This document shows positions 13,290 to 56,817 of a stretch of 64,000 nucleotides of DNA, one piece after another; positions within the stretch are counted from its first letter, which is position 1, and the number at the start of each line of letters is the position of its first letter. Under the pieces are notes generated by a model that saw nothing but the letters and a program-made list of their open reading frames with translations, was not told the DNA's origin and did no database searches. Origin of the DNA: an uncultured SAR116 cluster alpha proteobacterium (GTDB lineage Bacteria; Pseudomonadota; Alphaproteobacteria; Puniceispirillales; Marisalimonadaceae); contig CACNRW010000011.1 of NCBI GenBank assembly GCA_902622875.1, positions 6,289 through 70,288 on the forward strand. The letters are read 5' to 3'. The translations under genes and the position numbers were made by a program.

Positions 13290-13330
13290 TTAAATGATAA
13301 AAACAAATAATTTAAATCAAAAAAATTGAT
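13290..13330 (-). promoter_or_regulatory. Candidate LysR site A (faces the 13233 operon)
   Basis: Minus strand ATCAATTTTTTTGAT (13330-13316), 17-nt gap, ATCATTTAA (13298-13290). Confidence 0.65.
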
Positions 13331-13356
13331 AAAAAAAGATCTAATATATTATGTAA

Positions 13357-13397
13357 ATCATTTTTCTTGATTTAAATTATTGATTAAAATCATTTAA
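13357..13397 (+). promoter_or_regulatory. Candidate LysR site B (faces the tauE-mce operon)
   Basis: ATCATTTTTCTTGAT (13357-13371), 17-nt gap, ATCATTTAA (13389-13397). Confidence 0.65.
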
Positions 13398-13449
13398 GTT
13401 TTTTAATTAAATATTTTAAATTTAGCATTATTTTTTGGGGATTTTTCAA

Positions 13450-14229
13450 GTGCTTAATGGTCTTTTATTAGAAGTATATAAATTACTACCTAATTTTACC
13501 ATTATTCAATTTGTCCTTACTTTGATGGTAGCTTTTCTTGGTGGTTTAATAAGAGGATATACTGGTTTTGCAGGAGCCCTTTTGCTTTTACCTGGTTTTG
13601 TTTTAATTATGGGACCTTTGCCTGCATTAAATGTAGTTGTTATTTCTGGAATGATAGGACAATTACTTATACTTCCAAATGCAATTAAAAATGCCCAAAA
13701 AAAAATAGTATCACTTTATGGCTTAGGTATTTTCATAGGTGTATATGTTGGTTTATATTTTCTTTTTAAAAGAGAAATCCCCGACATTACTTTTTTTATG
13801 GGAATTTTTATAATTGTTGCAACTATTATTCTTATTGCTGGCTGGAAGTATAAAGGAAAAATTAATTCTTTAACGTCTGTTTCTTTTGGAAGTGGAATTG
13901 GTTTTTTTGCTGGATTTTTTGGTGTTCCAACAGGTCCATTGACAGGATTATTTTTTTTATCCCAAAACGAAAGTATCAAAATAATCCAAGCAAATATACA
14001 ATGTACTGTAATTTTAACTGTGGCGGCATTTTTTTCTTATTTTTATTTTATAAATGGTTATGAAGAAAATTATTTGTTTTTGGGTTTGTTAATGTCTTTA
14101 CCTTTAGCCGTTGGTTTAAAAACAGGACAGTTACTATTTAAAATTTTACCGGAAAAGATTTTTAGACCAGTTACATATAGTTGCTTAATAATTCTTGGAG
14201 CAACTTTGTCATTCAATGCTTATGAATAG
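13450..14229 (+). CDS. TauE/SafE family exporter
   Basis: GGLIRGYTGFAGAL and GFFGVPTGP repeats, about 8 TM; GTG at 13450 follows a GGGGA RBS (ORF track starts at 13435). Confidence 0.85.
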   Translation: MLNGLLLEVYKLLPNFTIIQFVLTLMVAFLGGLIRGYTGFAGALLLLPGFVLIMGPLPALNVVVISGMIGQLLILPNAIKNAQKKIVSLYGLGIFIGVYVGLYFLFKREIPDITFFMGIFIIVATIILIAGWKYKGKINSLTSVSFGSGIGFFAGFFGVPTGPLTGLFFLSQNESIKIIQANIQCTVILTVAAFFSYFYFINGYEENYLFLGLLMSLPLAVGLKTGQLLFKILPEKIFRPVTYSCLIILGATLSFNAYE

Positions 14230-14249
14230 CTTTATTTAGGGAGTATAAA

Positions 14250-14666
14250 TTGAAACAAAAAATAGGTGTAGAAAATATAGATCATGTTGGAATAGTAGTT
14301 CCAAGCATAGAACAAGCTATTAAACATTATGAAAAAAATTTTAATATTAAACGTGGTGAAATTAAAATTTCAAAAAAACAAAAAGTAAAAATCAGTTTGT
14401 TAGAATTTAAGAATATTAAATTAGAATTAATAGAACCTTTGAATCAAGAAAGTCCTGTTAATAGTTTTTTGTCAAAAAATCCTCTTGGTGGACTTCACCA
14501 TTTGGGAATTGAGGTTAATAATATTGATGAAACATATGACATTGCTCAAAATCTAGAATTAAACCCAATAGGAAAACCTTCAGAGGGATATCATGGAAAA
14601 TTATTATTTTTTTTACATCCAAAAAAAATGATGAACACCTTAATAGAGATTATTTCAAAACATTAA
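14250..14666 (+). CDS. mce: Methylmalonyl-CoA epimerase (VOC superfamily)
   Basis: DHVGIVV, KLELIEPL, GGLHHL, FLHPK, LIE; TTG start after GGGAG. Confidence 0.85.
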   Translation: MKQKIGVENIDHVGIVVPSIEQAIKHYEKNFNIKRGEIKISKKQKVKISLLEFKNIKLELIEPLNQESPVNSFLSKNPLGGLHHLGIEVNNIDETYDIAQNLELNPIGKPSEGYHGKLLFFLHPKKMMNTLIEIISKH

Positions 14667-14680
14667 AAAAGGAGAATAAA

Positions 14681-15538
14681 ATGAAAACTGACTATAATGA
14701 AATAATAGTTGAAAGAAAAGAAAATGCTGTTTGGATAACTATCAATCGACCTGAGGTTAGAAATGCATTCAGAGAACAAACTTTAGACGAAATGCGTGAA
14801 GCAGTTCTTGAAACAAGAAATGATACTACAGTTACATGCATAGTATTTTCAGGTGCCGGAAAAGAAGCTTTTTCGGCTGGTGGTGATTTTTATGCAATGA
14901 AAAGGTTAAACTGGTCTAATGCAGCTCATTGGAATGACAGAATGCTTGGATTAGCAATGGCAATTAGAGGAGTTCCTATACCTGTTATAGCTATGGTTAA
15001 TGGATTTTGTATGGGTGGAGGTCATGAACTAGCTTTATGGTGTGATTTAGTAATTTGTTCTGACACAGCGGTGTTAGGTCAAACTGGAGCTAGAGTTGGA
15101 GCTTGTCCTACTGTTGGAGCAACTCAGTATTTGCCAAGAATTGTAGGAGAAAGGATCGCTAGAGAGATGATTTTTCTATGTCGGACTTTTACAGGAAAAG
15201 AAGCTGTAGATGTTGGTTTGGCTAACAAATGTGTTAGTCAAGATCAATTACTAGATGAGACTATGAAATGGGTGAAACAAATAAACACTTATAGTGGTCA
15301 AACTATTAGGCAAACCAAAAAATCATTAAATTCAGAATCAGACGAGTTATATGCATCATGGCAACATGGTATGGAGTTGCTTGCTCATGTATGGGGATCT
15401 GATGAGTGCATGGAAGGAATGAATGCATTTATAGAAAAAAGAAAGCCAAACTTTTTCAAATTTAGAGAAAAAAATGCTCAAATTGTAAAGGATTATTTAA
15501 CTGGATTAAATAATGACGACAACGTAAAACCAAGTTAG
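14681..15538 (+). CDS. Crotonase-superfamily enzyme, BadI/MenB-like (putative ring-opening beta-ketoacyl-CoA hydrolase)
   Basis: INRPEVRNAF, FSAGGD, GGGHEL, GQTGARVG, AREMIFLCR, EGMNAFIEKRKP. Confidence 0.8.
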   Translation: MKTDYNEIIVERKENAVWITINRPEVRNAFREQTLDEMREAVLETRNDTTVTCIVFSGAGKEAFSAGGDFYAMKRLNWSNAAHWNDRMLGLAMAIRGVPIPVIAMVNGFCMGGGHELALWCDLVICSDTAVLGQTGARVGACPTVGATQYLPRIVGERIAREMIFLCRTFTGKEAVDVGLANKCVSQDQLLDETMKWVKQINTYSGQTIRQTKKSLNSESDELYASWQHGMELLAHVWGSDECMEGMNAFIEKRKPNFFKFREKNAQIVKDYLTGLNNDDNVKPS

Positions 15539-15545
15539 AAATGAT

Positions 15546-16775
15546 ATGAGTGTAAATCAAAGCTATCCATTAACTGGAGTAAAAGTACTTGACCTTACAA
15601 GAGTTCTTGCAGGTCCCCTATGCACACAATATTTAGGGGATCTGGGAGCTGAAATTATCAAAATTGAAAATCCACAAGGTGGAGATGATACAAGAGCTTG
15701 GGGCCCCCCTTTTTCTAAAGATATTTCTGCGTACTTCTTAGGTGTCAACAGAAATAAAAAAAGTTTGGCACTTGATTTTAAGTCAAAAGAAGGTTTTGAA
15801 ATTCTTACAGAACTTATAAAAAAATCTGATGTTGTTATAGATAATTTTAAGCCTGGATTTTGGGATAAGGTTGGTTTAACTGACGAATGGTTTAATAAAA
15901 ATACTAATAGTATAGTTAGAAACTCTATTTCAGGTTATGGAGATGTTGGTCCTCAAGGAGGTCTTCCTGGTTATGATTTTTTATTACAAGCAGAATCTGG
16001 TTTAATGAAAATTACAGGTGATGAAAGCGGCCAACCTATGAAATTAGGAGTTGCAATAGTTGATATAGTAACAGGTCTAAACGCAGTTATTTCTATATTA
16101 AGTGGTCTAATTATTAAGAATAAAAAATTAAATATAAACGAAAGTATTTTAACTGAAGTAAACTTATATAACACTGGTATTTTTTTATTAGCAAACGTTG
16201 CGTCAAATAATTTAATATCTAATAAAGAATCTGGAAGATTTGGAAATGGTCACCCTAATATAGTTCCTTATAATTTATTTAAGACCAAAGACGGACAAAT
16301 TGCTCTAAGTGTTGGTAATGATAAACAGTTTAAAAAGTTTTCAGAATTAATTAAAAAACCAGAATTGTATTTGAATGATAAATTTAAAACAAATGAACAT
16401 AGAGTAATTAACAGATTAGAACTTGAAAAATTAATAGAAGTTTCACTTAAGCAGAATAATTCGGAATATTGGTATGATTTATTTATTAATGCAAACATTC
16501 CTTCTGCAATTGTAAGAAGCGTTAGTGAGGCACTTAAACACCCACAAACAATAGAAAATCAAATGGTTCAAAATATTAAACACCCTAAAGGTGGAACTTT
16601 CAAAACATTAAATACACCAATGACAATAAATAAAAAAAGAGGATTGAGTTCTCCTTTATCACCTCCTTTACTAGGGGAGCATTCTTACGAAATTTTAAAA
16701 AATATAATGAAAATTGATAATGAAAAATTTCTAGAACTTTGTAATAGTGGAGTAACCAAAGATGGAAGAAATTAA
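15546..16775 (+). CDS. Family III CoA transferase (CaiB/BaiF)
   Basis: DLTRVLAGP, GDLGAEIIKIE, NRNKKS, GYD, PPLLGEH. Confidence 0.93.
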   Translation: MSVNQSYPLTGVKVLDLTRVLAGPLCTQYLGDLGAEIIKIENPQGGDDTRAWGPPFSKDISAYFLGVNRNKKSLALDFKSKEGFEILTELIKKSDVVIDNFKPGFWDKVGLTDEWFNKNTNSIVRNSISGYGDVGPQGGLPGYDFLLQAESGLMKITGDESGQPMKLGVAIVDIVTGLNAVISILSGLIIKNKKLNINESILTEVNLYNTGIFLLANVASNNLISNKESGRFGNGHPNIVPYNLFKTKDGQIALSVGNDKQFKKFSELIKKPELYLNDKFKTNEHRVINRLELEKLIEVSLKQNNSEYWYDLFINANIPSAIVRSVSEALKHPQTIENQMVQNIKHPKGGTFKTLNTPMTINKKRGLSSPLSPPLLGEHSYEILKNIMKIDNEKFLELCNSGVTKDGRN

Positions 16776-17904
16776 AGATATAGTCTTAAAAAATAGTTTT
16801 GAGATTAAAGACATAGAAGTTTTTGCGTTAAATATCCCATTAAAAAAACCTATTAAAATGTCTGGAATTACCGTTCAAGATGCCCAAAATATTTTTATAA
16901 AAATAATCTCAAATAATAATGTATATGGATGGGGTGAAGCATCTTCTGCACCCACAATGACAGGAGAGTTTGTTGAGGGTATGAATGCTGCCGGTAAATT
17001 TATAAAAAATCAATTAATTGGTATAAAGATAAAAAACCTTTTTGATGTTAATGTTTTGAAAAAACTTCCAATTTATGAAAACAAAGGAACATTATCTGCC
17101 TTTGAGATGGCTTTAATAGATTTAATGTTAAAAGAAGAGAAGACATCATTTGAAAAATTTTTTAAGCTGAGAGAAAGAAATAATATTCCAATAATTCAAA
17201 TGGTGGCTGGCTTTGATTTAGATGAAGAAATAACTAATGTTAAAAATGCGGTTTCTAATGGATTTACACGTTTTAAAATAAAAGTAGGATCTTCTAAAAG
17301 TTATAAATATGACCTTGAAAGATGTGCCAAAATAATCTCTTCAGTAGATGATACTTGTATATTTTCTGCCGATGCTAATGAAGGTTATACCCATGAAGAT
17401 GCACTCAATTTTGCTTTAGAAGCCAAAAATTGTGGTCTTAAATTTTTTGAACAACCAATTCCATCAAAAGATTTAGACTTCATGAACACTATTACAACTC
17501 AAAGTTCTATTCCAATTTGCTCTGATGAGGGAGTCCATTCTAAGTCAGATATAAATAATATAATAAATAATCATATATCTAACGGAGTAAGTTTAAAAAC
17601 TATCAAATTAGGAGGTGTAGTTGATGTTATGAATTGTGCAATTTTAGCAAATAAAAATAATATTTTTGTCAATCTAGCAGGTAAAGTGGCAGAAACTAGT
17701 ATTTCAAGCTACGCTATAGCAAATATTGCAACCTCTATTCCTCAAATGGATTGGGACTTAAGTATTACTAATCAATATTTAGTTGAAGATCCAGTTTTGG
17801 AGCCATTGAAAATTAAAGACGGAAAAGTGCATATAAAAGAAACAATTGGACTAGGAACAGAAATAGACATAAGCAAGGCAAAAAAATATATTATTCAAAA
17901 TTAA
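16762..17904 (+). CDS. Enolase superfamily, muconate cycloisomerase/mandelate racemase-like
   Basis: GWGEA, FKIKVG, DANEG, EQP, SDE, KLGG. Confidence 0.88.
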   Translation: MEEIKDIVLKNSFEIKDIEVFALNIPLKKPIKMSGITVQDAQNIFIKIISNNNVYGWGEASSAPTMTGEFVEGMNAAGKFIKNQLIGIKIKNLFDVNVLKKLPIYENKGTLSAFEMALIDLMLKEEKTSFEKFFKLRERNNIPIIQMVAGFDLDEEITNVKNAVSNGFTRFKIKVGSSKSYKYDLERCAKIISSVDDTCIFSADANEGYTHEDALNFALEAKNCGLKFFEQPIPSKDLDFMNTITTQSSIPICSDEGVHSKSDINNIINNHISNGVSLKTIKLGGVVDVMNCAILANKNNIFVNLAGKVAETSISSYAIANIATSIPQMDWDLSITNQYLVEDPVLEPLKIKDGKVHIKETIGLGTEIDISKAKKYIIQN

Positions 17905-17987
17905 TTTTTTTGAATTGATTTAGAGTTCAGATGTTATAGGGTATTTAAAACTTGATATAGTTTGAAGTTAAGTAAAGGGAAAGACTT

Positions 17988-19838
17988 ATGGAAGAAAGAT
18001 TAGTGGATATCAAAGACCTGGAGGTTCATTTCCCTTTGAAACATGAAACTGTTAGAGCTGTTGACGGAGTTTCTTGGCATGTAAATAAAGGAGAAACTCT
18101 TGCAATAGTAGGAGAGTCTGGCTCTGGAAAATCTGTTACAGCTATGTCACTTATGAGACTTACAGATTATTCAGGTGGTAAAATCAATTCTGGATCAATG
18201 AATTTTATAAAAAAAAGTGGAGAAAAATCAGACCTTTCTAAATTAGATCAAAACGATATGAGAAATATACGTGGCAATGATATTTCTATGATTTTTCAAG
18301 AGCCAATGACTTCTCTTAATCCTGTATTCACAATTGGAATGCAAATTTCGGAAGCTATTATTAAGCATCAAGGTAAAACTGAACAAGAAGCATATGACAT
18401 ATCATTAGATATGTTAAAATTAGTAAGGATTCCTGAACCAGAAAAGCAACTTGCACAATACCCTCATCAACTTTCTGGGGGCATGAGACAACGTGTGATG
18501 ATTGCTATGGCTTTGAGTTGCAAACCTACACTATTAATAGCCGATGAGCCCACGACCGCTCTAGATGTTACTATACAAGCACAAATATTAGACTTAATAA
18601 AAAAACTTCAAATAGATATTGGTATGTCTGTAGTCTTTATAACACATGACATGGGTGTTGTTGCTGAAATGGCTGACAGAGTAGTTGTTATGTTAAAGGG
18701 TAAAAAAGTAGAAGAAGGTACTGCAAATGAAATTTTTCATAACCCTCAACATCCATATACAAAGGCTTTACTAGCTGCTGTGCCTAAATTAGGAAGTATG
18801 AAGGGAAGATCTCTTCCGGCCAAGTTTTCAAATATAGATATAAAAAGATCAGAAGGTGATAATGTTACTAATTCTAAAAAAAGTGAATTGATCGAAATTA
18901 AAGATAATGTGAAAATTTCAGATGTACCATTATTAGAAGTAAAGAATTTGACTACAAGATTCTTAATTAAATCAGGTATAGGAACAACTAAAGGTCAAGT
19001 TCATGCTGTAGAAGGCATAAACTTTTCTCTTCAACAAGGGGAAACCTTTGGTTTAGTCGGTGAAAGTGGTTGTGGAAAATCTACAACAGGAAGAAGTATT
19101 TTAAGGTTAGTTGAACCTCATAGAGGTAGTATTTTATATCAAGGTGAGGATTTAACTTCATTAAATTCTAATGAATTAAGACCTTTTCGTAGACAAATGC
19201 AGATGATTTTTCAAGATCCATTCGCTTCACTCAATCCAAGAATGACAGTAGGAGAAACTATCGCTGAGCCTATGGTAGTTCATGGAATAACTGATAAGAC
19301 TGGTGCATCTGAAAAGTCAGTTGAAATTTTAAAAAAAGTTGGTTTAACTCCTGATTATGCATCTAGATATCCTCATGAACTATCAGGTGGGCAAAGACAA
19401 AGAATTGGTATAGCTCGTGCATTGGCACATGAACCTAATTTAATAATTGCAGATGAGGCTGTTTCTGCACTTGATGTATCAATTCAAGCTCAAGTTGTTA
19501 ACTTAATGATGGAATTACAAGAAGAATTTGGGTTGTCATATTTATTCATTAGCCATGACATGGCAGTAATTGAGAGGGTTTGCCATAGAGTTGCTGTAAT
19601 GTATTTAGGAGAGATTGTAGAGTTAGGGAGTAGAGGACAAGTTTTTGAAAACCCCAAACATCCATATACAAAAAAGTTAATGAAAGCTGTTCCAATTGCT
19701 GATCCTAAATTACGAAAAAAAGAATTAAATTTAATGACAGACGAAATACCTAGTTTAGTTAAACCAATAGGTTATGAGCCTGAAAAAATTGATTTGATTA
19801 AAGTAGAGGAAGGTCATTTTATAAAGCCATATAATTGA
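17988..19838 (+). CDS. Peptide/nickel-type ABC transporter ATPase, two fused NBDs
   Basis: Two Walker A ([16 protein letters not shown]), [32 protein letters not shown]. Confidence 0.95.
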
Positions 19839-19866
19839 TTATTAATTAGTAAATATTATTTAACAT

Positions 19867-19907
19867 ATCATTAATTATGATATTTAATATGCAATATTAT
19901 AATTTAA
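19867..19907 (+). promoter_or_regulatory. Candidate LysR site C (faces the ABC SBP)
   Basis: ATCATTAATTATGAT (19867-19881), 17-nt gap, ATAATTTAA (19899-19907); TTTAAC-N17-TACTAT promoter-like spacing. Confidence 0.6.
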
Positions 19908-20017
19908 CTTTTTTCTAACTTATTTTACTATAAAAGAATGCTATAAATTATAGTAACTAATTGATTTATTAATGGGTTTTTTTTTAATAAATTTTTAATT
20001 TTAACTAGGAGGAAATA

Positions 20018-21598
20018 ATGCTTAATTTTAAAAAAAGCATAGTTGGAGTTTTAACTCTAGCTGCTTTCACCTTTACGGGAAACGCTGTTTTAGCAGCATC
20101 GTGTCCTAAAACAGGTGGTATAATGAAGTTTGGCGTAAAAGCTGAACCGCCAACTTATGATATGCATGGAACAAATTCTTACGCAGTGATGCATTTTGTT
20201 GCACAACATTACTCAACACTTTTAACTTTTGATTGGAATAAATTTCCAAAATTGGAAGGTGATGTTGCAGACACTTGGAATCAATCTGCAGATGGTCTCA
20301 AATATACTTTTAAGCTTAAAAAAGGTATAAAGTTCCACGATGGAACAGCTTTAACTTCTGCTGACGTAAAGGCTACTTATGATAGACTTAGAAATCCACC
20401 AAAAGGTGTAATTTCTGTAAGAAAAGCTCTTTTTTCATCAATTTCTTCAATCGAAACACCTGACGATAATACTGTCGTGTTTAATTTAAGTAAACCAGAC
20501 GCATTTATGATGGATGGTTTTGCATCACCTTTTAACGCTATTTATTCAGCTAAAGATATTGCTAAAGACCCAAAGTGGCATTTAAAAAATATTAATGGTA
20601 CAGGTCCTTACAAGTTTACCAGTCACTCAAAAGGTGAAAGCTGGAAAGCTGCTAAATACGATGATTTTCATCATGGCGACAACTGTTTAGATGGTACTGA
20701 AGGTTACAGAATTAAAAAATTAGGTGAGCCTTTAATTGGTGGTCAAATCATGGCTGAATGGAGAGGAACCTCTCCTCCTGAAAGAGTTATGCTAAAAAAA
20801 GAAATGGGTGACGATGTTTCATTCCAAGCTAAAACACTTATGACACTTTGGGTAGTATCATTAAATAGTAAAACTGAAGCATTTAAGAATAAAAAAGTTA
20901 GACAAGCTATAAATATGTGTATTGATAGACATGCTGGTCTAAAAAAATTAGCTAAAATAACTTTTACTGCACCTAGACCTTCAGGTTATTTGTTATATAA
21001 CTCTACATATGCACTACCAGATGAAGAATTATATAAAATCCCAGGTTTTACTAAAGACATAGATGCAAGTAGAAAAAAAGCTATGGCGATGCTTAAAGAA
21101 GCTGGAGCTGAAGGTTTAGAATTTACATATAGTAACAGAGCTGTTTCACACCCATATGACCATATTGCTATTTGGTTGATGTCAGAGTGGAAAAAGTGTG
21201 GTTTAAAACCAAAAATGATAACTAACCCAACTTCTAAATTCGTAAAAATTAGAAGAGAAGGTGGTTTTGATGCTACAATTGACTGGGCACCATCATTTTT
21301 ACCTGATCCTACTCTAATGCATTTTAAATATATTTCTGCTGATAGAACTGCATCTAATTATTCTAAAAATATTGATAGAGACTTAGATAAGTTGTTTGAT
21401 GCTCAAGCTGGCGAAACAGATGTAGAAAAAAGAAAATCTATTGTTCATCAGTTTGAAAAGAAAGCATTAGAAAATGCTTGGGTACTTCCAGTAACATATA
21501 CTGACAGGGTTATAGCTTTAAATAGTAAAGTTAAAGGATATGTTATTGCAAACTCGCACATTTTAAATAATACTTGGCGTGGAGTTTATTTAGATTAA
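20018..21598 (+). CDS. ABC substrate-binding protein, family 5 (Dpp/Opp-like)
   Basis: Signal peptide, FHDGTALTSADVKAT, GTGPYK, KVRQAI; GGAGG RBS. Confidence 0.93.
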   Translation: MLNFKKSIVGVLTLAAFTFTGNAVLAASCPKTGGIMKFGVKAEPPTYDMHGTNSYAVMHFVAQHYSTLLTFDWNKFPKLEGDVADTWNQSADGLKYTFKLKKGIKFHDGTALTSADVKATYDRLRNPPKGVISVRKALFSSISSIETPDDNTVVFNLSKPDAFMMDGFASPFNAIYSAKDIAKDPKWHLKNINGTGPYKFTSHSKGESWKAAKYDDFHHGDNCLDGTEGYRIKKLGEPLIGGQIMAEWRGTSPPERVMLKKEMGDDVSFQAKTLMTLWVVSLNSKTEAFKNKKVRQAINMCIDRHAGLKKLAKITFTAPRPSGYLLYNSTYALPDEELYKIPGFTKDIDASRKKAMAMLKEAGAEGLEFTYSNRAVSHPYDHIAIWLMSEWKKCGLKPKMITNPTSKFVKIRREGGFDATIDWAPSFLPDPTLMHFKYISADRTASNYSKNIDRDLDKLFDAQAGETDVEKRKSIVHQFEKKALENAWVLPVTYTDRVIALNSKVKGYVIANSHILNNTWRGVYLD

Positions 21599-21605
21599 TA
21601 ATTAT

Positions 21606-21639
21606 TTTAAGGGCAAAGATTAATTTCTTTGCCCTTAAA
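21606..21639 (+). terminator. Hairpin after the ABC SBP gene (terminator/mRNA stabiliser)
   Basis: TTTAAGGGCAAAGA (21606-21619) / TCTTTGCCCTTAAA (21626-21639) perfect 14-bp stem. Confidence 0.75.
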
Positions 21640-21671
21640 TATTGATCTTTTTTCTTAAGGTTTCCTAAAAT

Positions 21672-43658: not shown

Positions 43659-43661
43659 TTT

Positions 43662-47353: not shown

Positions 47354-47362
47354 AATAATCCC

Positions 47363-48381: not shown

Positions 48382-49479
48382 ATGGATGTTGGATTTTTTA
48401 CTATGCCGATACACCCAATCGATAAAGATTACAAAAAATCTTTATTAGAGGACAGGCATGCTTTTTTATTAGCAGATAGATTAGGTTTTTCAGAAGCATA
48501 TTGTGGTGAACACGTCACAGATGCTGCGGAAAATATAACTTCAAGTGCACTATTCATAGCCTCTATTGCATCATGCACAAAGAATATAAGGCTAGGAACA
48601 GGCACTGTAAATATGCCTAACTCTCATCCTGCAGCTATTGCAGGACAAATTGCAATGTTAGACCATATGCTAGATGGTCGTTTGAATTTTGGTATTAGTC
48701 CTGGAGGCCTTGCTTCAGACGCGGAAGTCTTTGGAAATCTTGATAAAAATAGAAACGAAATGTTTGTTGAATGTATTGATATGGTTTTAGAAATCTGGAA
48801 AAGAGATGCACCATACAATATCAAGGGAAAATACTGGAATGTTTCAACGGAAAGAACCCAAATGACTGAAATTGGTCAGGGAATAATGCAAAAGCCTTTG
48901 CAAAAGCCCTACCCTCCAATAATTTGTACTGTTGTTGCACCCTTTTCAAAAGGCCTTGTGGCAGCTGCTGCACGTGGCTGGCAACCTATATCTGCTAACT
49001 TTTTATTACCAAAGTGGGCAAAAACTCATTGGCCTAGCTATGTTCAAGGCTGTGAAGAAAGTGGCTTAGAGGTAGATTCAAAAAAATGGAGAGTTGCTAA
49101 GTCTATTTTTGTTTGTGAAGATAGAAATAAAGCAAAGGAATATGCTTTAGGGAATGGTAGCCCTTATGTTTTTTATTATAAACAACTGCTTACGAAAATG
49201 TTGAAACATGGAAGAGCCAATTTATTTAAAGAAGATCAAAACATGGCTGATGGTGACTTAAAATTGGAAGATATCTGTAATAAATTGATTTTATATGGAT
49301 CTGCTGACGAAGTTGCTGACAAAATACTAGAATTTAGAGAAGAAGTTGGAGATTTTGGAACTTTATTATACGCAGGTCACGATTGGGCAGATGTTGATTT
49401 AGCAAAAAAATCTATGGAGTTAATGGCAGAAAAAGTAATGCCCAAAATAAATGATAATATTAAGATTGCTGCTGAGTAG
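48382..49479 (+). CDS. Luciferase-like (LLM class) flavin-dependent monooxygenase
   Basis: GFFTMP, GEH, IRLGTG, HPAAIAGQIAMLDH, KPLQKPYPP; ATG 48382 has a GGAGG RBS (ORF track starts at 48340). Confidence 0.92.
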   Translation: MDVGFFTMPIHPIDKDYKKSLLEDRHAFLLADRLGFSEAYCGEHVTDAAENITSSALFIASIASCTKNIRLGTGTVNMPNSHPAAIAGQIAMLDHMLDGRLNFGISPGGLASDAEVFGNLDKNRNEMFVECIDMVLEIWKRDAPYNIKGKYWNVSTERTQMTEIGQGIMQKPLQKPYPPIICTVVAPFSKGLVAAAARGWQPISANFLLPKWAKTHWPSYVQGCEESGLEVDSKKWRVAKSIFVCEDRNKAKEYALGNGSPYVFYYKQLLTKMLKHGRANLFKEDQNMADGDLKLEDICNKLILYGSADEVADKILEFREEVGDFGTLLYAGHDWADVDLAKKSMELMAEKVMPKINDNIKIAAE

Positions 49480-49487
49480 GATATATT

Positions 49488-50282
49488 ATGCAGAATGTTT
49501 CAATAGAAAATGGTAATTTTTTAAATGTTAAAATAGATGGTGATAAAAATTTACCAAAAGTAATCCTATCGAATTCTTTAGGAGCTGATACTCGCATGTG
49601 GGATCTTCAGGTTGAGGAACTAAAAAATAAATTTTGTGTAATACGTTACGATAAAAGAGGTCATGGTAAAAGTAGCCCTGTTGAAGGACCATATTCTTTT
49701 GAAATGCTTGAAGGTGATGTAATTACAATTTTGGATGAACTTGAAATTGAGAAAGCTCATTTTGTAGGACTTTCAATTGGTGGAATGACATCGTTAGGCT
49801 TAGCTTTAAAACAACAAAATAGATTTAATAAAATTATTTGCTGTGCGGCAAGAGCTGACATGCCACCCCCAATGAAAGAAACTTGGGATCAAAGAATTAG
49901 CGTAGTTAATGACAAAGGTACTAGTGGAGTAGTTGATGGCTCCATTGAGAGATGGTACAGCGAAGATTTTAATAATAATTCTGCTAACGATGAGATGATC
50001 AATATGTCTAAAAATATGATAAGTAACACTTCTACAAATGGTTACGTTGGTTGTTGTGAGGCTATAAAAACACTTGATTATTTAAAAGACTTATCAACTA
50101 TAAATAAAGAAATTTTATATATATCAGGTGAGAATGATATGGGAGCTCCAGCTATGGCTATGGAAGAAATGTCTCATCTAACTCCAAATAGTCAATATAT
50201 TTGCATTCCTGGCGCAGCTCATATTCTCAATATAGAAGCACCAGATTTAGTAAATGAAGCTATTCTCAATTTTTTAAATTAA
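49488..50282 (+). CDS. Alpha/beta hydrolase, 3-oxoadipate enol-lactonase (PcaD)-like
   Basis: LSNSLGAD..MWD, RYDKRGHG, GLSIGG, AAHILNIE. Confidence 0.85.
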   Translation: MQNVSIENGNFLNVKIDGDKNLPKVILSNSLGADTRMWDLQVEELKNKFCVIRYDKRGHGKSSPVEGPYSFEMLEGDVITILDELEIEKAHFVGLSIGGMTSLGLALKQQNRFNKIICCAARADMPPPMKETWDQRISVVNDKGTSGVVDGSIERWYSEDFNNNSANDEMINMSKNMISNTSTNGYVGCCEAIKTLDYLKDLSTINKEILYISGENDMGAPAMAMEEMSHLTPNSQYICIPGAAHILNIEAPDLVNEAILNFLN

Positions 50283-50299
50283 TTAAGAAAGGAAATATA

Positions 50300-50716
50300 A
50301 TGGCATTGAAGACATTTGAACATGTTTTGATACTTGCAGATGACGTTGACAAAACGAAAGATTTCTATGTAGATATTTTAGGTTTAGAAGTTGGATACAG
50401 ACCTGACTTTCCTTTTAAAGGGTATTGGCTTTATCTAAAAGAAAATAAAAAAGCAGCTTGCATCCACTTAGCAATGAGAAAACAGGATACTGGTCAAGAC
50501 TATTACATAGGTAAAAAAGATGATGTTAAGTCTGGTTCTGGTGCAATTGATCATGTAGCTTTTAATGCTGACGATATTGAAGGAATGAAGTCTAAATTAG
50601 ACAAGATTTCTATGGAATATACACATAGAAAAGTTCCTGGGTTTCCACTTGAACAGTTGTTTATAGATGATCCTGATGGTGTTAAAGTTGAGTTAAATTA
50701 CGCCACATCTGATTAA
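50300..50716 (+). CDS. VOC/glyoxalase family protein
   Basis: FEHVLI, FYVDILGL, RPDFPFKGYWL, IDHVAF, DPDGVKVELN. Confidence 0.9.
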   Translation: MALKTFEHVLILADDVDKTKDFYVDILGLEVGYRPDFPFKGYWLYLKENKKAACIHLAMRKQDTGQDYYIGKKDDVKSGSGAIDHVAFNADDIEGMKSKLDKISMEYTHRKVPGFPLEQLFIDDPDGVKVELNYATSD

Positions 50717-50739
50717 AAAATTATTTAAGGGAGAATTAA

Positions 50740-51708
50740 ATGCCTCATAAGTATGATGAAAAAATGTTTGATATTAAACATTTAAGAAAAACAGCTGAAA
50801 AACTTAAGAATTGGGGACGCTGGGGGCCAGATGATGAAATTGGAACTTTAAACTTTATAACTCCTGAAAAAGTTGTAGACGCCAGCAAGCTTATAAAAAA
50901 GGGAAAGCGTTTTAGTTTAGGATTAAATTTTGACAGACATGGTCCTCAAAAAGGAAGCTGGGGTAACAGATTTAATCCAATTCACTTAATGCTTGCTACA
51001 GGTACAGATGCAGTTACAGGTAGATTTGATGACTTTGGATTGAGATATGCTGATGATATGGTCTCTTTACCACTTCAATGTGCAACTCAATGGGATGCGT
51101 TGGCTCATATTTTTTATGATGATTATATGTGGAATGGATATGATGCAAAATTAGTCGACAGTGATGGTGCCCAAAAGAATGGCATAGAAAAAGTTCGAGC
51201 TGAGATGGCTGGAAGAGGTGTATTGTTAGATGTTGCACGATGGGCAGGAGTAGATTTTTTTGAAGATGGGATTGCTATTACTTCAGACGATTTGGATGAG
51301 TGTGCCAAATCTCAAAATGTTGAAATAAAACAAGGTGACTTTGTTATTGTGAGAACTGGTCAGATGGAACAAAGATTAGATTGTGGTGAATGGGGAGGAT
51401 ATGCTGGAGGCGATGCTCCAGGATTAGCATTTGACACTGCAGAATGGATTTATGATAAAGAAATAGCAGCCATTTGTACTGACACATGGGGCTGTGAAGT
51501 TAGACCAAATGAGACTAAAGATGCCCAGCAACCATGGCATTGGGTTGTAATTCCTATGATTGGTATAACTATGGGTGAAATATTTTATTTAAGAGATTTA
51601 GCTGCAGATTGTAGTAATGATAAGGTCTTTGAATTCTTTTTCTGTGCGCCTCCACTGCCAATCACTAAAGCTGTTGGATCACCAATAAACCCTATGGCAA
51701 TAAAATAA
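50740..51708 (+). CDS. Cyclase family protein (long subtype)
   Basis: NWGRWGPDDEIGTLN, QCATQWDALAH, GRGVLLD, VGSPINPMAIK. Confidence 0.9.
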   Translation: MPHKYDEKMFDIKHLRKTAEKLKNWGRWGPDDEIGTLNFITPEKVVDASKLIKKGKRFSLGLNFDRHGPQKGSWGNRFNPIHLMLATGTDAVTGRFDDFGLRYADDMVSLPLQCATQWDALAHIFYDDYMWNGYDAKLVDSDGAQKNGIEKVRAEMAGRGVLLDVARWAGVDFFEDGIAITSDDLDECAKSQNVEIKQGDFVIVRTGQMEQRLDCGEWGGYAGGDAPGLAFDTAEWIYDKEIAAICTDTWGCEVRPNETKDAQQPWHWVVIPMIGITMGEIFYLRDLAADCSNDKVFEFFFCAPPLPITKAVGSPINPMAIK

Positions 51709-51715
51709 ACCAAGC

Positions 51716-52915
51716 ATGACCCATTCTGCTACAATAATTGGCGGCTCTATGGCTGGATTGTTTGCTGGTAATGCTTTACGTAAAAAAGGGTGGGATATTT
51801 CTATTCATGAAAAGGTCTCTGTTCCATTATCAGGGCGAGGAGCTGGAATAGCTACATATGACGAGTTAGCTGACTTAGTATTTAAATCTACTGGTAATAA
51901 TAATGTTTTGGGTACTAGTGCAAAGTCAAGAATTTCATTGGACCAAAAAGGTAAAATTATAGCTAGTTACGACTACCCACAAGTCTATACAAGTTGGCAA
52001 TATTTATTTTCTATACTCAGAGAAAAAATTGATAATAAAAATTATTTTATGGGTGACGACTGTACTGAGATTCATCATGGAAAAGAAAAAGTAACTGCAG
52101 TTTTTAATAATAAAAAAGAAAAACAGTCTGATTTAATAATAATTGCTAATGGGATTAAGTCAGAACTCAGACACTATGTTGATAGCACAGCTTCTCCTCA
52201 GTATGCGGGATATGTTGGATGGCGAGGCGTAGTATATGAAGATCAACTATCTAAAAAGTCTTTAGAAATGCTTTCCAACTATTTTATTGTAGTTTTACCT
52301 AATAACCAGCAAATTGCAGCTTACCCTATTGCAGGAGAAGGCAAAGATCCGTTCAAGATAGGGAATAGAAGAATTAATTGGATATGGTACAAACCTGCAA
52401 ATACAAAAAAATTAGATACCTTATTGTTAGGTAAATCTGGTCAACAATTTGTAGATGGTATTCCTCCAAATGAAATACGTGATGAGATAGTCCAAGATTT
52501 GTTTAAGGAAGCCGAAAACAAACTTCCACCTCAATTAACCGAATTAGTATTAAAAACTTCAAAGCCCTTAATTCAGCCAATTTTTGATCTTGAAAGCGAT
52601 AAAATGTTAAACAAAAGAGTAATTACTATTGGTGACGCAGCATTTACAGCAAGGCCACATATTGGTATGGGTGTAACAAAAGCAGCTTTAGACGCTTTTA
52701 CTTTGTCTGATTATCTTCAAAATAATTTTTATTTAGATGAATTAATTAAATGGGAAACATCAAGGGTTGAAAGTGGGAAGTTTCTTGTAAATAGAAGTAG
52801 GTTGTTGGGCCGATATCTATCAGAACCAAAAAAAAATGAAATCTTAGTAATGCCTGATGTAACAGATGTACTAAAAGACACTGCAATAAGCTTAAATGAT
52901 ATAAAGACAAATTGA
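51716..52915 (+). CDS. FAD-dependent monooxygenase, 2,6-dihydroxypyridine 3-hydroxylase (DhpH)-like
   Basis: IIGGSMAGL, RGAGI, YAGYVGWRG, RINWIWY, GDAAFTARPH.GMG. Confidence 0.85.
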   Translation: MTHSATIIGGSMAGLFAGNALRKKGWDISIHEKVSVPLSGRGAGIATYDELADLVFKSTGNNNVLGTSAKSRISLDQKGKIIASYDYPQVYTSWQYLFSILREKIDNKNYFMGDDCTEIHHGKEKVTAVFNNKKEKQSDLIIIANGIKSELRHYVDSTASPQYAGYVGWRGVVYEDQLSKKSLEMLSNYFIVVLPNNQQIAAYPIAGEGKDPFKIGNRRINWIWYKPANTKKLDTLLLGKSGQQFVDGIPPNEIRDEIVQDLFKEAENKLPPQLTELVLKTSKPLIQPIFDLESDKMLNKRVITIGDAAFTARPHIGMGVTKAALDAFTLSDYLQNNFYLDELIKWETSRVESGKFLVNRSRLLGRYLSEPKKNEILVMPDVTDVLKDTAISLNDIKTN

Positions 52916-52979: not shown

Positions 52980-55373
52980 TTATATTTTTCCTAAGGCTCT
53001 CAATATTTTTTCTGGGGTAATTGGCTGAGATAAAACCTCAGTTCCATGATGTTTTAAGGCATTGTTAACAGCGTTCATTATAACTGCGGGAGCACCTCCA
53101 GTACCTGCCTCTCCTGCACCCTTAGCTCCAATAATACTTCTTCCAGAATTAGTTGTTACATGATCAACGATGATATCAGGCATTTCGTATGCCATAGGGA
53201 CTAAATAATCAGCCATAGTTGCATTTTGCATATTACCCTGGTCATCATAAACACACTCTTCAAAAAGAGCACCACCTATTCCTTGAATAACACCTCCTCT
53301 AATTTGTTCTTCAACTAACTTTGGATTAATTTGTGTACCACAGTCTTCAACAGCCCAAAATTTATCTATTTTTATAATGCCAGTGTCTTGATCAATAGAA
53401 ACTTTACAACCCATGGCACTGTTAGTGAAAACAAAAGGAATTCCCTCTATAAGAAAACTGGCAGTAGCTAAAAGTTCAGGGTTAGTTCCTTTAGGAAGTT
53501 CATGCCCTCTATAATATACTGTCTCAGCTAATTGTTGAAGAGTTATGCCTTCACCACCATTTTTTCTAATCACAGTATTATTTTCAACGTCCAATGAATT
53601 TTTATCAGTTTGCATAATTGCAGCTGCAATATCTAATATATTGTCTTTAAGAATTCTTGCTGCCTTTAAAACTGCCTCACCGCCAATTCCTGCTCCTCTT
53701 GATGCCCATGTGCCACCACCATAGGGAGTTGCATCAGTATCACCTAAAGTAACCCTTACAGAGTCCATGGAAACGCCTAGTTGATCTGCAGCTATTTGTT
53801 TCATAATGGCCTCGGTGCCCTGCCCTTGCTCTGTAATAGATGAAGACAGATGAATTGCACCAGAACCTTCCAGTCTGATTGATGCCCCATCTTGAGAGGA
53901 TATATGAGCACCTCCAACACCATAAAATAAAGGACTAGGGTTAGTAACTTCACACATACTAATTACACCGTAACCACAGAGTACATTTTTATCTAAGTTT
54001 GCTATCTTTTCTTTTTCTATGTCCTGGATATTCATCATAGTTAGTAATTTATCCATCGAAGCTTCATGCGATAAATCTTCTAAAGGTACTCCTGAAGGGG
54101 TTTTATTTGGATATGCATTATCAGGAATAAAATTTTTCTTTCTTATTTCAGAAAGACCAATATCAATTTTATTTGCAGCCTTGTCTATCAAAGCTTCTGT
54201 GATAGCGACTGCAATAGGGTGACCAACTGCTCTATATTGACACATTGGCGTTTTATTTTGAAAAACAACTGTCCCTACTGCTTTATAATTTGGGATAACA
54301 TACGGAGCACCCGATAAATTCAAAACTTGATTTGTTTCAATAGCAGACGTTCTTGGATACATGCTAAATGGACCTATACCACTCAAGTCATTTATTTCCA
54401 TCGCTAAGATTTTACCTTCTTTATCAACTCCTAACTTTCCACTTATTTTATGACAACGTGCATGAATGTCAGTTGTAAAACTCTCTAATCTATCGGCAAT
54501 AAACTTTATCGGACGTCCTAGCTTCTTAGAAATTGCAGCAACAGCCATTTCATCAGGATAAACGTGCACTTTAATACCAAAAGATCCACCAACATCTCTA
54601 CTAACTATTCTGACTAAACCTTCATTTACTTCTAAATGTTTAGCTATAATATGCTGCATCATATGGGGAGCTTGACCATTATGGTAGATAGTTATCTTTC
54701 CTTCTGATTTATTCCAGTCAGCTACAATTCCTCTGGATTCTAGTGTGACACCGGTATGCCTGGCAAAATCAAGTGTTGTTTGTACTACTGCATGAGATGT
54801 TTCAAAAGCCTGATTTACGTCACCTTGATTAACAGTCCTTGTCCAAAAAAGATTGCTGCCCAATTCAGGATGAATAACTACTGCATTATCATCTAAAGCA
54901 GTTTCCATATCTACTTGGGCATCTTTTTCTTCCCAATCAACTTCAATTAGTTCCAATGCGTCTTCTGCCTGTGCCCTATTATTTGCAATTACAACTGCAA
55001 TAGGTTCGCCTTGCCACCTAGCAATTTTCTTCGCTAACGGTGTCTGTTCAGGAGATCTCATTTCACCTAAATGACCTAATGTACCTACCCAGGGTGTACA
55101 ATATTCATCTATTTCTTTGGCTGTATAAACATCAAATACACCAGGTGATTTTTTTGCTTCTTCAACATTTATTGACTTAATTTCAGCGTGAGCAAACGGA
55201 GACCTTAAAAATGCAACATGTAGCATTCTAGGCAAAACTAAATCATCGACAAATTGTCCACCACCTTCCAAGTGTTTTTTGGCATTTTCTCTTGGTAAAC
55301 TCCTTCCTATATAGGAATTTGGTCTATCCATAGATCCTAATTTTGGATTTTGATTTACTTTAATATCGTCCAT
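52980..55373 (-). CDS. Xanthine dehydrogenase family molybdopterin large subunit (CoxL-like fold, not CO dehydrogenase)
   Basis: VGGSFGIK, active-site loop QYRAVG, GGGTWASRG, KGAGE. Confidence 0.92.
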   Translation of the reverse strand: MDDIKVNQNPKLGSMDRPNSYIGRSLPRENAKKHLEGGGQFVDDLVLPRMLHVAFLRSPFAHAEIKSINVEEAKKSPGVFDVYTAKEIDEYCTPWVGTLGHLGEMRSPEQTPLAKKIARWQGEPIAVVIANNRAQAEDALELIEVDWEEKDAQVDMETALDDNAVVIHPELGSNLFWTRTVNQGDVNQAFETSHAVVQTTLDFARHTGVTLESRGIVADWNKSEGKITIYHNGQAPHMMQHIIAKHLEVNEGLVRIVSRDVGGSFGIKVHVYPDEMAVAAISKKLGRPIKFIADRLESFTTDIHARCHKISGKLGVDKEGKILAMEINDLSGIGPFSMYPRTSAIETNQVLNLSGAPYVIPNYKAVGTVVFQNKTPMCQYRAVGHPIAVAITEALIDKAANKIDIGLSEIRKKNFIPDNAYPNKTPSGVPLEDLSHEASMDKLLTMMNIQDIEKEKIANLDKNVLCGYGVISMCEVTNPSPLFYGVGGAHISSQDGASIRLEGSGAIHLSSSITEQGQGTEAIMKQIAADQLGVSMDSVRVTLGDTDATPYGGGTWASRGAGIGGEAVLKAARILKDNILDIAAAIMQTDKNSLDVENNTVIRKNGGEGITLQQLAETVYYRGHELPKGTNPELLATASFLIEGIPFVFTNSAMGCKVSIDQDTGIIKIDKFWAVEDCGTQINPKLVEEQIRGGVIQGIGGALFEECVYDDQGNMQNATMADYLVPMAYEMPDIIVDHVTTNSGRSIIGAKGAGEAGTGGAPAVIMNAVNNALKHHGTEVLSQPITPEKILRALGKI

Positions 55374-55383
55374 AATTCACACC

Positions 55384-55860
55384 TTAATTAATTTCGTTAA
55401 TAGTTTCTTCAATTGCATCTACAATTGACTGGTAACCAGTACATCTACAATAATTCCCAGAGATTTCTGATCTTATTTCATCTCTGCTTAATTTTTTCTT
55501 AGAAGAAATTATTTCTTTAGTTGTCATAAGCATTCCTGGAGAACAAAAACCACACTGGAAAGCATTGTGTTTCAAAAAATTATTTTTAACTTTTTGCATA
55601 ACTTCGTCATCAAAACCCTCTACAGTAGTTATAGACGAGCCATTAGCTTGTGATGCAAGGACAAGACATGACCTGACTGCCACACCATCCATTTCAATCG
55701 TACATGCCCCACATGCACCTTGCTCACATCCTAAATGTGTTCCAGTTAAACCTTGGGACCTTAAATAATCAGCTAAATGTTGCCTTGTTGGAACGGTTAC
55801 ATCGTCAAAATTCTCTCCATTTACAGAAAAAGATATGTTTACTGAATTTTTAGCCGACAT
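55384..55860 (-). CDS. [2Fe-2S] small subunit (CoxS-like)
   Basis: GCEQGACGAC, QCGFC, CRCTGY. Confidence 0.95.
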   Translation of the reverse strand: MSAKNSVNISFSVNGENFDDVTVPTRQHLADYLRSQGLTGTHLGCEQGACGACTIEMDGVAVRSCLVLASQANGSSITTVEGFDDEVMQKVKNNFLKHNAFQCGFCSPGMLMTTKEIISSKKKLSRDEIRSEISGNYCRCTGYQSIVDAIEETINEIN

Positions 55861-56703
55861 TTATCTCTCCAATTTATTTAAAATCTTATTAATAAGTATT
55901 GTTGCCAAATGTAACTTCATTTCTGAACTGCTATTCAAGTCACCTGCAAAATCTATTTCAGAAGCCAAAGATTTTTTTAATTTTTCATAGTCATATCCGT
56001 CATCTATCACTAACTTTGCTGTGTTTTGTCCAACATTTGGTTTATCACCTGTTGCAAAGTAAACGAGATCAAGATTATTGATTTTAGATTGATCAAGTTC
56101 AACTTTTGCCATTAAACCTGCCATAGCATAGTCACCATGACGTCGACAGACTTCATCAAAAATAAGATGTTGGTTAACGTCTAAAAGAGGATAACGAATA
56201 GCTATAAGAATTTCATCTGACTTTAAGTCAGTTTCAAAAAGTCCAAGGTAAAAGTCTTTTGCGTTGACAATTCTTTGACCTGACAATCCTGATAGTACTA
56301 TTTCTGCATTCATTGCGACGGCAAATGCTGGCAGTTCAGCTGCAGGGTCTCCGTAAGCTATACTTCCTCCATGGGTGCCTTTGTTTCTTATAGCTGCATG
56401 AGCAACCATTTTTAAAATATCAACTAGACACGGAAGTTTTTCATGAACTAGATCATTGTTCATTACATCTGAATGTGTTGCTAAGGCTCCAATATTTATG
56501 AAATCACCTTCAATTTTAATTTCGTTTAGATTATTAATTTTAGAAATATCAATTAAACAACTTGGACTAGAAAGTCTCATATTTAAAGCTGGGAGAAGTG
56601 ACTGTCCACCAGCAAGTATGACTGCCTCATCATCTTCAGACTTGTATTTTATGGCATCTTCAATATTTTGTGCTTCAAAATAAGAAAAATCTGGTGCCTT
56701 CAT
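55861..56703 (-). CDS. FAD-binding medium subunit (CoxM-like)
   Basis: MKAPDF, LAGGQSL, IRNKGTHGGS, RRHGDYA; ATG 56703 has a GGGGG RBS (ORF track starts at 56718). Confidence 0.93.
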   Translation of the reverse strand: MKAPDFSYFEAQNIEDAIKYKSEDDEAVILAGGQSLLPALNMRLSSPSCLIDISKINNLNEIKIEGDFINIGALATHSDVMNNDLVHEKLPCLVDILKMVAHAAIRNKGTHGGSIAYGDPAAELPAFAVAMNAEIVLSGLSGQRIVNAKDFYLGLFETDLKSDEILIAIRYPLLDVNQHLIFDEVCRRHGDYAMAGLMAKVELDQSKINNLDLVYFATGDKPNVGQNTAKLVIDDGYDYEKLKKSLASEIDFAGDLNSSSEMKLHLATILINKILNKLER

Positions 56704-56776
56704 TTCTATTACCCCCATTAGAAAACAATATATAAATATTTAATCATTAATCATTAATGGTATCAATAATTATTAA

Positions 56777-56817
56777 ATCATATTTAATGATTTTACATAT
56801 TTTAATTTATCATTTCA
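56777..56817 (+). promoter_or_regulatory. Candidate LysR site H in the coxM/osmC divergent promoter
   Basis: ATCATATTTAATGAT (56777-56791), 17-nt gap, ATCATTTCA (56809-56817); TTTCAA-N17-TATTGT promoter-like spacing. Confidence 0.65.

Follow-up and report, generated by a model that had tools for sequence, protein, structure and literature searches.

A 64,000-nt window of contig CACNRW010000011.1 (positions 6,289 to 70,288; G000:C11 in our numbering), from the 1.96-Mb, 81% complete, low-GC genome of an uncultured SAR116 cluster alphaproteobacterium, is occupied mostly by one catabolic island, with a metallo-hydrolase gene flanking it upstream and phoB at the other side. A first-pass annotation had described eight promoter copies of a bipartite motif on this island, ATCA-N7-TGAT followed after 17 nt by a second element, and had assigned all of them to the LysR-type regulator encoded at 34706. 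The locus raises three questions: (i) whether the motif is a regulatory site, (ii) which protein recognizes it, and (iii) whether the genes behind it form a single catabolic system. Our comparative analysis suggests that the motif is very probably the binding site of the 34706 LysR protein, which would activate nine operons of the island, and perhaps one remote promoter, on sensing its substrate.

The two-part motif and its candidate regulator

All eight sites, each with its second element after exactly 17 nt, were confirmed. The six palindromes listed as perfect (13316, 13357, 19867, 34680, 48293 and 56777) are indeed so, but the window total is eight, the other two (24095 and 56068) lying inside open reading frames (ORFs) without a second element. 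One-mismatch copies number 47 in the window, so that the two counted as sites, 35640 and 42450, were chosen post hoc. Genome-wide, 95 perfect palindromes were found, 17 of them non-coding according to our own ORF caller. The strict two-part motif, defined as the exact palindrome, N17 and ATCATTTAA with at most one mismatch, occurs only six times in 1.96 Mb, and all six copies are on the island: five of the annotated sites and one at window position -404, beyond the stretch covered by the annotation. The -404 site is a blind confirmation of the motif. Spacers of 12-16 and 18-22 nt gave 0-1 copies each, and no other among the 888 operon-leading promoters carries the strict motif. The palindrome alone is common in the genome, but the two-part motif is not. 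The loose form (1 + 2 mismatches) carries no signal by itself, with 29 copies at N17 versus 16-34 at other spacers. In leave-one-out scoring, five sites were equalled or exceeded by just 4-6 genome positions, and sites 34680, 35640 and 42450 by 50, 137 and 219, respectively. Given these modest ranks and the lack of an N17 excess in the loose form, the three latter sites needed outside evidence.

Such evidence is, for 34680 and 35640, their conservation in five of five congeners mapped and, for 42450, rank 6 of 888 promoters in an independently trained model. The best 79 loci of 443 LysR relatives obtained by a contig search include 67 distant ones (32-43% identity) from Afipia, Bradyrhizobium, Roseibium, Paracoccus and other hosts, with genomes of 46-69% GC; L078-L089 were left out of the distant counts as possible duplicates of genomes with a G number. 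The palindrome, with at most one mismatch, is found upstream of 50 of the 67 distant LysR genes (shuffle mean 8.6, maximum 12), and at 49 of the 66 loci with enough DNA it lies at most 70 nt from the LysR start. The fixed 32-nt offset predicted by the annotation is recovered as well: ATCATTT with at most two mismatches follows at +32 in 43 of 49 cases (13 of 18 after dereplication), reading away from LysR, and any other offset accounts for at most eight. The motif precedes the distant LysR orthologues regardless of which gene is divergent, and a site lies approximately 95 nt upstream of 44 of the 48 distant genes for the luciferase-like monooxygenase (LLM), including loci where this gene is not divergent from LysR. 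The boxes are conserved while the spacers diverge. On a 41-kb Marinovum plasmid used as an out-of-sample case, the two best matches precede the LLM gene and a hydrolase pair; in a Paracoccus locus with a different LysR, nothing scored above 8.7 bits.

Two recognition models built from distant promoters were applied to the window genome. The first, trained on 20 sites from distant LLM promoters only, placed all eight annotated sites and the -404 site within the top 38 of 3.9 million scored positions. The second, trained on 19 distant promoter sites, was used to rank the 888 operon-leading promoters; L090 and L091, too near the gene order of the window, were left out of training for this ranking and for the scans of distant targets and relative islands. 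Ranks 1-9 comprise eight island promoters and one promoter on contig C13. At least 11 bits were reached by 8 of the 26 island promoters and 1 of the 862 other leading promoters (Fisher p 1.5e-12).

The 34706 gene is the only LysR gene in the window and one of four in the genome; a protein with 81% identity to its product carries the label Candidatus Puniceispirillales. Its promoter region contains, as claimed, a T-N11-A palindrome (34680-34694), whereas no site was detected upstream of the other three (best 0.9 versus 11.3 bits). Its scores against the 25 best of 48 NCBIfam families do not reach the cut-off of any named one, and for neither this LysR nor the DctP proteins was a solved-structure relative found at the thresholds used. 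The orthologue promoters link the motif to the 34706 LysR, as the annotation had proposed, and the protein is predicted to bind it directly.

LysR orthologues (72-98% identity) were found in 7 of 24 congeners. In five of these genomes (G006, G016, G019, G022 and G024), the sites before the flavin reductase, dctQ, LLM and osmC genes are all kept, with diverged spacers. Site 34680 is also kept in G377 and G382, the counterpart of 35640 is a perfect palindrome in all five congeners mapped, and site 56777 is kept in five congeners. In three other genomes (G008, G009 and G017), the flavin reductase and LLM genes stand head to head with no LysR gene between them and no orthologue found elsewhere in the genome; their shared promoter has no site (best 1.5 versus 25.3 bits), and in G009 both flanks of the junction are on one contig. 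The reduced seven-gene islands left there (L183 on G009:C6, L185 in G008, L186 in G017) may be constitutive or otherwise controlled.

The remaining sites are conserved to different degrees. All 15 low-GC metagenome loci that include the upstream DNA (76-97% identity at the protein level) have the lactonase site 13316, as do G350, G367, G377 and G382; it is absent from all nine higher-GC loci that include this DNA (three further loci are cut off). The tauE site was found at 12 of the 14 low-GC metagenome loci holding tauE and in G350 and G367. Site 19867 recurs in L209, L216, L217, L231, G367 and G382, and site -404 in G003, G015, G350, G367 and L209. The weakest site, 42450, is conserved in G015 only and is seen before neither of two distant tctC orthologues.

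Two further scans are limited in what their counts convey: 2 of 300 genomes yielded the LysR in a search across the class, with at most seven candidates scored per genome, which gives no measure of its range, and the strict pattern gave 1-2 matches in each of five distant genomes (4 of 9 at the locus), being too strict to size their regulons. An apparent co-variation of the recognition helix with the site (a site at 47 of 58 TQSG loci and at 1 of 8 TQPG loci) was set aside, as three TQPG loci carry LLM-gene sites.

Architecture of the site and a predicted mode of action

The annotation had equated the motif with the two-site layout of LysR regulators, in which a recognition binding site is followed by an activation binding site. 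The two parts and their fixed register stand, but the layout appears to have three boxes rather than two. The whole element spans 47 bp and comprises IR1 (ATCA-N7-TGAT), IR2 at +22 and IR3 at +32. The dinucleotide AT occurs at +22 in all ten sites of this genome (intergenic frequency 0.133), and nine of these ten sites and 17 of 26 distant ones, several of the latter with the full ATCA, have a T-N11-A box at this offset; the next-best offsets gave 5 of 10 and 8 of 26. A single ATnAT pentamer serves as the right half of IR2 and the left half of IR3, and the second element of the annotation is this shared half-site. The pentamer is followed by a TTTAAN tail at the place expected for the -35 element. 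In distant sites, a TA-led hexamer recurs at about +60 and would place the box centres at -65, -43 and -33. Transcription starts predicted from this hexamer would give leaders of 14-27 nt at six of eight sites and of 79 nt at 19867; the tauE start is uncertain. The predicted starts, some 72 nt from the beginning of IR1, are 48365, 56849, 35712, 42522, 13429 and 19939 on the plus strand and 13258 and 34622 on the minus strand.

Similar centres are given in PMC5002191 for IlvY (-65/-43/-34), OxyR (-66/-44/-35) and CynR (-66/-44/-34), where box 3 represses and box 2 activates. In view of this layout, the part over the -35 element more probably serves for repression in the uninduced state, and activation would depend on IR2, which the annotation had missed. 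By analogy, a LysR tetramer without effector would occupy IR1 and IR3 and cover the poor -35 element (TTTAAN), and with effector would move to IR1 and IR2 and recruit RNA polymerase. At 34680, IR1 ends 11 nt ahead of the LysR ATG, a position that likely leads to autorepression of the regulator gene.

Content of the regulon and the case for one or several pathways

The predicted sites, the regulator and the operons are collected in the table. In the annotation, the operons behind the sites are the components of one catabolic system. This claim is supported only in part. There is a conserved core (monooxygenase, flavin reductase, molybdenum hydroxylase, PuuE-like hydrolase and cyclase), but the left-arm modules (lactonase, tauE, ABC) lie elsewhere and siteless in another family, and the list lacked the operon at -404 and the remote C13 promoter. 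The motif alone does not provide a full list either, because coxMSL and the HIBADH-cupin operon, both conserved LysR neighbours, are preceded by weak oriented matches (ranks 17 and 29 of 888) instead of a well-formed site.

Table. Predicted LysR sites, regulator gene and operons of the island (window positions unless stated)
Feature	Position	Strand	Remarks
Site	-404 (C11:5884; L005:5884-5930)		Before amidohydrolase-Gfo/Idh/MocA-TTT operon 144-5786, which enters the window
Site	13284..13330	-	Before lactonase-SDR-IlvD-OsmC-like-hydrolase operon
Site	13357..13403	+	Before tauE-VOC-crotonase-CoA transferase-enolase-ABC ATPase operon
Site	19867..19913	+	Within ABC unit, before family-5 binding protein
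Site	34648..34694	-	IR1 34680-34694, IR2 34658-34672, IR3 34648-34662; faces flavin reductase operon
Site	35640..35686	+	Before TRAP dctQMP; overlaps LysR stop codon; one mismatch
Site	42450..42496	+	Weakest; before TTT transporter tctC-B-A; rank 6 of 888 in second model
Site	48293..48339	+	Before LLM operon; top score of genome, rank 1 in both distant-trained models
Site	56777..56823	+	Before osmC-puuE; promoter region shared with coxMSL; rank 4 in first model
Site	C13:6112-6158 (L006)		Faces HpaR-type MarR gene; divergent from HpcH-like aldolase and old yellow enzyme; second perfect palindrome at 6186
LysR-type regulator gene	34706..35653	+	PF00126 and PF03466 (HTH_1 and substrate-binding domain)
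Lactonase operon	7491..13233	-	Amidohydrolase_2 lactonase-like, SDR, IlvD-family dehydratase, double OsmC-like, alpha/beta hydrolase
TauE-ABC genes	13435..24382	+	TauE, epimerase-like VOC, crotonase, CoA-transferase III, enolase family, ABC ATPase, binding protein, two permeases, HIBADH-like
Flavin reductase genes	26041..34598	-	Flavin reductase (likely start 34598), HisD-like dehydrogenase, SDR, quinone reductase, IorAB-like Mo enzyme, Gfo/Idh/MocA, Zn-ADH
TRAP transporter	35726..38688	+	dctQ-dctM-dctP
TTT transporter	42549..45686	+	tctC-tctB-tctA
HIBADH operon	45690..48238	-	HIBADH-like, 187-aa protein (no Pfam match), YciI, cyclase; divergent from 48293 site; own oriented site weak, 6.2 bits
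Core operon	48382..52915	+	LLM, PcaD-like hydrolase, VOC protein, cyclase, 2,6-dihydroxypyridine hydroxylase-like FAD monooxygenase
Molybdenum hydroxylase subunits M, S, L (coxMSL)	52980..56718	-	Divergent from 56777 site; own oriented site weak, 8.6 bits
OsmC-like and PuuE-like hydrolase	56874..58214	+	OsmC-like, likely start 56874

The genes at 26041..34598 are presumably co-transcribed, judging by their order, and the 187-aa protein is one that we take to be cupin-like. The window also encodes an isochorismatase-family protein and three cyclases. The nearest solved relatives of the main enzymes, all distant, are quinoline 2-oxidoreductase for the large subunit of the molybdenum hydroxylase (1t3q, E 8e-126), 2,6-dihydroxypyridine hydroxylase for the FAD monooxygenase (2vou, E 6e-37), 2,6-dihydroxypseudooxynicotine hydrolase for a hydrolase (2jbw, E 8e-18) and diketocamphane monooxygenase for LLM (4uwm, E 3e-30); in an atlas search, the neighbours of LLM are all generic luciferase-like clusters. 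PuuE allantoinase and, weakly, isatin hydrolase are further relatives. The pyridine- and quinoline-type relatives, the isochorismatase-family protein and the cyclases point to an N-heteroaromatic ring, and we lean slightly towards a nitrogen-containing ring compound, or its breakdown product, as the substrate. The chemistry could start with molybdenum-dependent ring hydroxylation, continue with flavin-dependent ring oxidation or opening, for which TgnB, PyrA and TpdA offer an analogy, and end with amide or imide hydrolysis and CoA-linked steps.

Homologues found within up to 10 kb of the 67 distant LysR genes include those encoding LLM (48), flavin reductase (40), molybdenum hydroxylase subunits (28-29), HIBADH-like (25) and PuuE-like (25) proteins, DctM (24), PcaD-like proteins (21), cyclase (18) and OsmC-like proteins (14). 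A site precedes 13 of 36 distant flavin reductase genes, and matches of at least 13 bits number one or two at 54 of 65 distant loci and zero at seven, compared with three within the same 10 kb in the window genome, where the site count is larger because the island is larger. We propose the LLM monooxygenase and flavin reductase genes as the oldest, conserved targets, beyond which the regulon of this family would have grown to include the transporters and left-arm operons. The growth is visible in rearranged islands, where the site precedes whichever gene now leads the unit, such as the ABC ATPase gene (L215, L216) or an OsmC-like gene (G350, L214).

Whether the enlarged regulon serves one pathway or is a merger under the same LysR of at least two routes (the core monooxygenase and molybdenum hydroxylase; the left-arm lactonase and CoA-linked steps), perhaps for different substrates, concerns the single-system claim and not the assignment of the sites. 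In family f4 (G033, G439), the left-arm modules lie on a different contig from LysR, have no correctly placed site and are accompanied by their own cyclase, PuuE-like, flavin reductase and HIBADH paralogues; because this arm lies apart and siteless, a merger appears about as likely as one pathway. At the five congener loci listed above, the lactonase, tauE and ABC modules are missing, as is the second TTT module, and no lactonase, FrsA-like or TauE gene was seen within 10 kb of any of the 67 distant LysR genes. The HisD-like/SDR pair also occurs in unrelated plasmid clusters, and the C13 site precedes an hpaR gene. On the other hand, three genera of family f1 keep the island whole, sites included, and Gfo/Idh/MocA and TTT homologues from the outer operons stand near the distant LysR genes (GFO1 at 12, GFO2 at 23, TctA2 at 9 and TctA1 at 7 of the 67).

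Recognition of the motif by another factor, such as the HpaR-type MarR protein of C13 or one of the other three LysR proteins, is very improbable. The C13 site does rank 3-7 genome-wide and face a gene scoring above the HpaR cut-off, and four genomes (G001, G003, G012 and G018) have sites and no LysR orthologue found. But the C13 site is present in just 4 of 11 orthologous promoters scored, and may be a recent copy, as its spacer resembles that of 48293; the four genomes were rejected as counter-examples because assembly gaps break the island and leave its LysR part unassembled, which makes the absence of LysR uninformative; and the motif tracks the LysR gene into high-GC genomes while the other LysR genes are siteless. 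Least probable of all is a reading without a common regulator, in which the copies arose by chance in AT-rich DNA, serve as sigma-70 -35 elements or are left over from promoter duplication: intergenic GC is 24%, the loose consensus lacks signal, the TTTAAN tail stands at the -35 position and the C13 and 48293 spacers are alike, but the boxes are kept and the spacers diverged across genomes of 46-69% GC, an independently trained model selects the island promoters, and for the six strong sites chance matching is largely refuted.

Several observations weigh against assignment of the sites to the 34706 LysR or against the three-box, single-system reading. As many as 17 of the 67 distant LysR genes lack the palindrome, and in a count of exact palindromic words ATCA-N7-TGAT comes third (12 loci), after two other words with 13 each. 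Many of the distant loci come from related Afipia-like genomes, and 18-26 sites are left after dereplication. The left half of IR3 is kept in 43 of 49 distant sites, but only 3 of the 10 sites of this genome and 8 of the 26 distant ones have a complete T-N11-A; with the right half so weak, the repressing box may not act everywhere, and a two-box mode is still conceivable. A plain sigma-70 scan did not recover the predicted LLM promoter. The joint absence of LysR and site in G008, G009 and G017 counts as one event, because their promoters are nearly identical, and these genomes are 70-88% complete. The osmC promoter, whose site scores 18.3 in the first model, ranks 412 of 888 in the second, because the ORF caller placed its start too early. 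No site of at least 11 bits precedes dctQ or tauE in G377 and G382, or osmC in G382. Among the distant genes, sites precede osmC in 1 of 13 cases, coxM in 1 of 27, dctQ in 2 of 18, and none of 25 puuE, 18 cyclase and all tct genes; the modules missing from the five congeners count against a single system as well.

Fourteen RNA runs from five seawater studies contain 27-44% of the sampled words from 47300-57200, so that a marine lineage carrying this stretch is represented in seawater RNA libraries. In four runs, RNA contigs cover 26-30 of 30 bins of the stretch, the only one on which reads were placed. Around the osmC/coxM site, contigs break off at 56751 on one side and, with adapter sequence, at 56868 and 56879 on the other, and in three of the four runs cover falls before the LLM gene; these are weak hints, seen with no silent stretch as a control. 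As such libraries can contain DNA, the data indicate presence rather than induction. An Rfam scan of the window gave no matches.

Some genes of the island and its relatives deserve separate mention. The 8707-9897 protein has an OsmC-like domain and a partial match to NF041052 ('OsmC-related (seleno)protein'), and a second OsmC-like gene starts at 56874. The DctP genes at 37588-38688 and 41044-42144 are similar, the latter without a site or membrane partners; between them lie an aldehyde dehydrogenase gene and a 206-aa ORF without a family match, the start of which we take to be TetR-like. The ORF at window position 144 is the tail of a gene of approximately 350-360 aa. Upstream, a 145-aa luciferase-like ORF (L005:5408-5845), possibly split or truncated, stands beside a 158-aa ORF between two similar amidohydrolase genes. 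Two LLM paralogues of the genome (C24:1647-2723 and C31:10438-11517; 38% and 60%) have no site; the C31 paralogue stands after a tRNA-like sequence, and in G001 the C24-type paralogue lies about 8 kb from the C13-type site. At L188:1-1000 (G018:C7), an apparent inversion, possibly an assembly error, joins window 24168 to 35655 and removes the dctQ IR1. At one Bradyrhizobium locus (L143:2873-6895), additional ORFs beside the core, presumably a keto-acid cleavage enzyme, an acyl-CoA dehydrogenase-like flavin monooxygenase and a TetR protein, are possible clues to the substrate.

Taken together, and tentatively, these results may outline an undescribed marine pathway for N-heterocycles, marked by the site from SAR116-like oligotrophs to Afipia, Bradyrhizobium and Roseibium. 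Its regulator, in a streamlined family where only four LysR genes were found, would have spread from one or two to about ten promoters over 57 kb by capturing modules, now taking in a remote hpaR promoter, and LysR with the LLM promoter could serve as a biosensor. Approximately 45 genes with family-level names are thereby grouped into one likely inducible unit, divided into an old core and later modules. Cultured strains of Afipia, Bradyrhizobium, Roseibium and Marinovum carry both the exact 47-bp element and its predicted cognate protein, and a reporter screen against marine metabolites could name the substrate of this orphan pathway.

Comparison with known systems

A literature search retrieved no description of the cluster or of ATCA-N7-TGAT with a LysR, which may be recorded in subscription papers, RegPrecise or supplements. 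Three island enzymes have their nearest solved relatives, all distant, in pyridine and quinoline catabolism and a fourth has its own in diketocamphane monooxygenase; the island gene set matches no pathway encountered in the literature. In the hpsNOP genes for catabolism of 2,3-dihydroxypropanesulfonate (DHPS), HisD-like, SDR and zinc-ADH-fold genes follow in a row, as they do on the island, and the nearest solved relative of the 32729-34036 HisD-like protein is HpsN (E 3e-114). However, this protein belongs to a widespread group with 63-73% identity, found on many plasmids, apart from a group at about 47% and with unrelated neighbours; in both plasmid regions read, an SDR gene comes next. The protein, annotated as hisD, is likely neither HisD nor an HpsN orthologue. 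Aerobic CO dehydrogenase, which is recognized by its active-site loop motifs, was rejected: the large subunit scores 439-477 bits against cut-offs of 950-991, and its loop reads QYRAVGHP. The lumichrome (lum) cluster was rejected as well, since the P450, Rieske dioxygenase and thiamin-dependent decarboxylase described for it in PMC12746152 are absent from the 63 ORFs of the window. The homarine operon homABCDER, as described, is a much smaller gene set.

Among regulators, NodD differs from the present case: the 25 best of the 48 families include no NodD model, no nod genes occur in the 63 window ORFs, and the targets are catabolic. Two boxes 7 nt apart are a feature shared with the nod box. 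IR1 itself fits the ATC-N9-GAT given in PMC5596368.

The ThnR site of the Sphingopyxis tetralin regulon is reportedly ATCA-N7-TGAT, although the text consulted contains no such string. ThnR resembles the present regulator in that one LysR acts over several catabolic promoters, with a primary site centred at -64 and back-to-back divergent sites (PMC4834489). The same source describes a need for phased sites 55 bp apart, whereas back-to-back sites here are 38-60 nt apart among relatives, a spread by which helix phasing of the ThnR type was rejected.

OxyR, IlvY, CynR and OccR, as presented in PMC5002191, share with the predicted element 15-bp T-N11-A boxes at offsets of approximately 22 and 31-32 nt, the overlap of boxes 2 and 3, and a box 1 at the start of the regulator's own gene; a sliding-dimer model of LysR action is outlined in PMC11495319. 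The differences are that (i) the half-site here is ATCA, compared with ATAG, TTGC or ATAA, (ii) the right half of box 3 is poorly kept, (iii) the 34706 LysR scores below the NCBIfam cut-offs of these proteins, and (iv) nine or ten promoters would be controlled instead of one divergent pair. The predicted regulatory logic is that of a textbook LysR system and would not surprise a specialist; its value is the handle that it offers on an orphan pathway.

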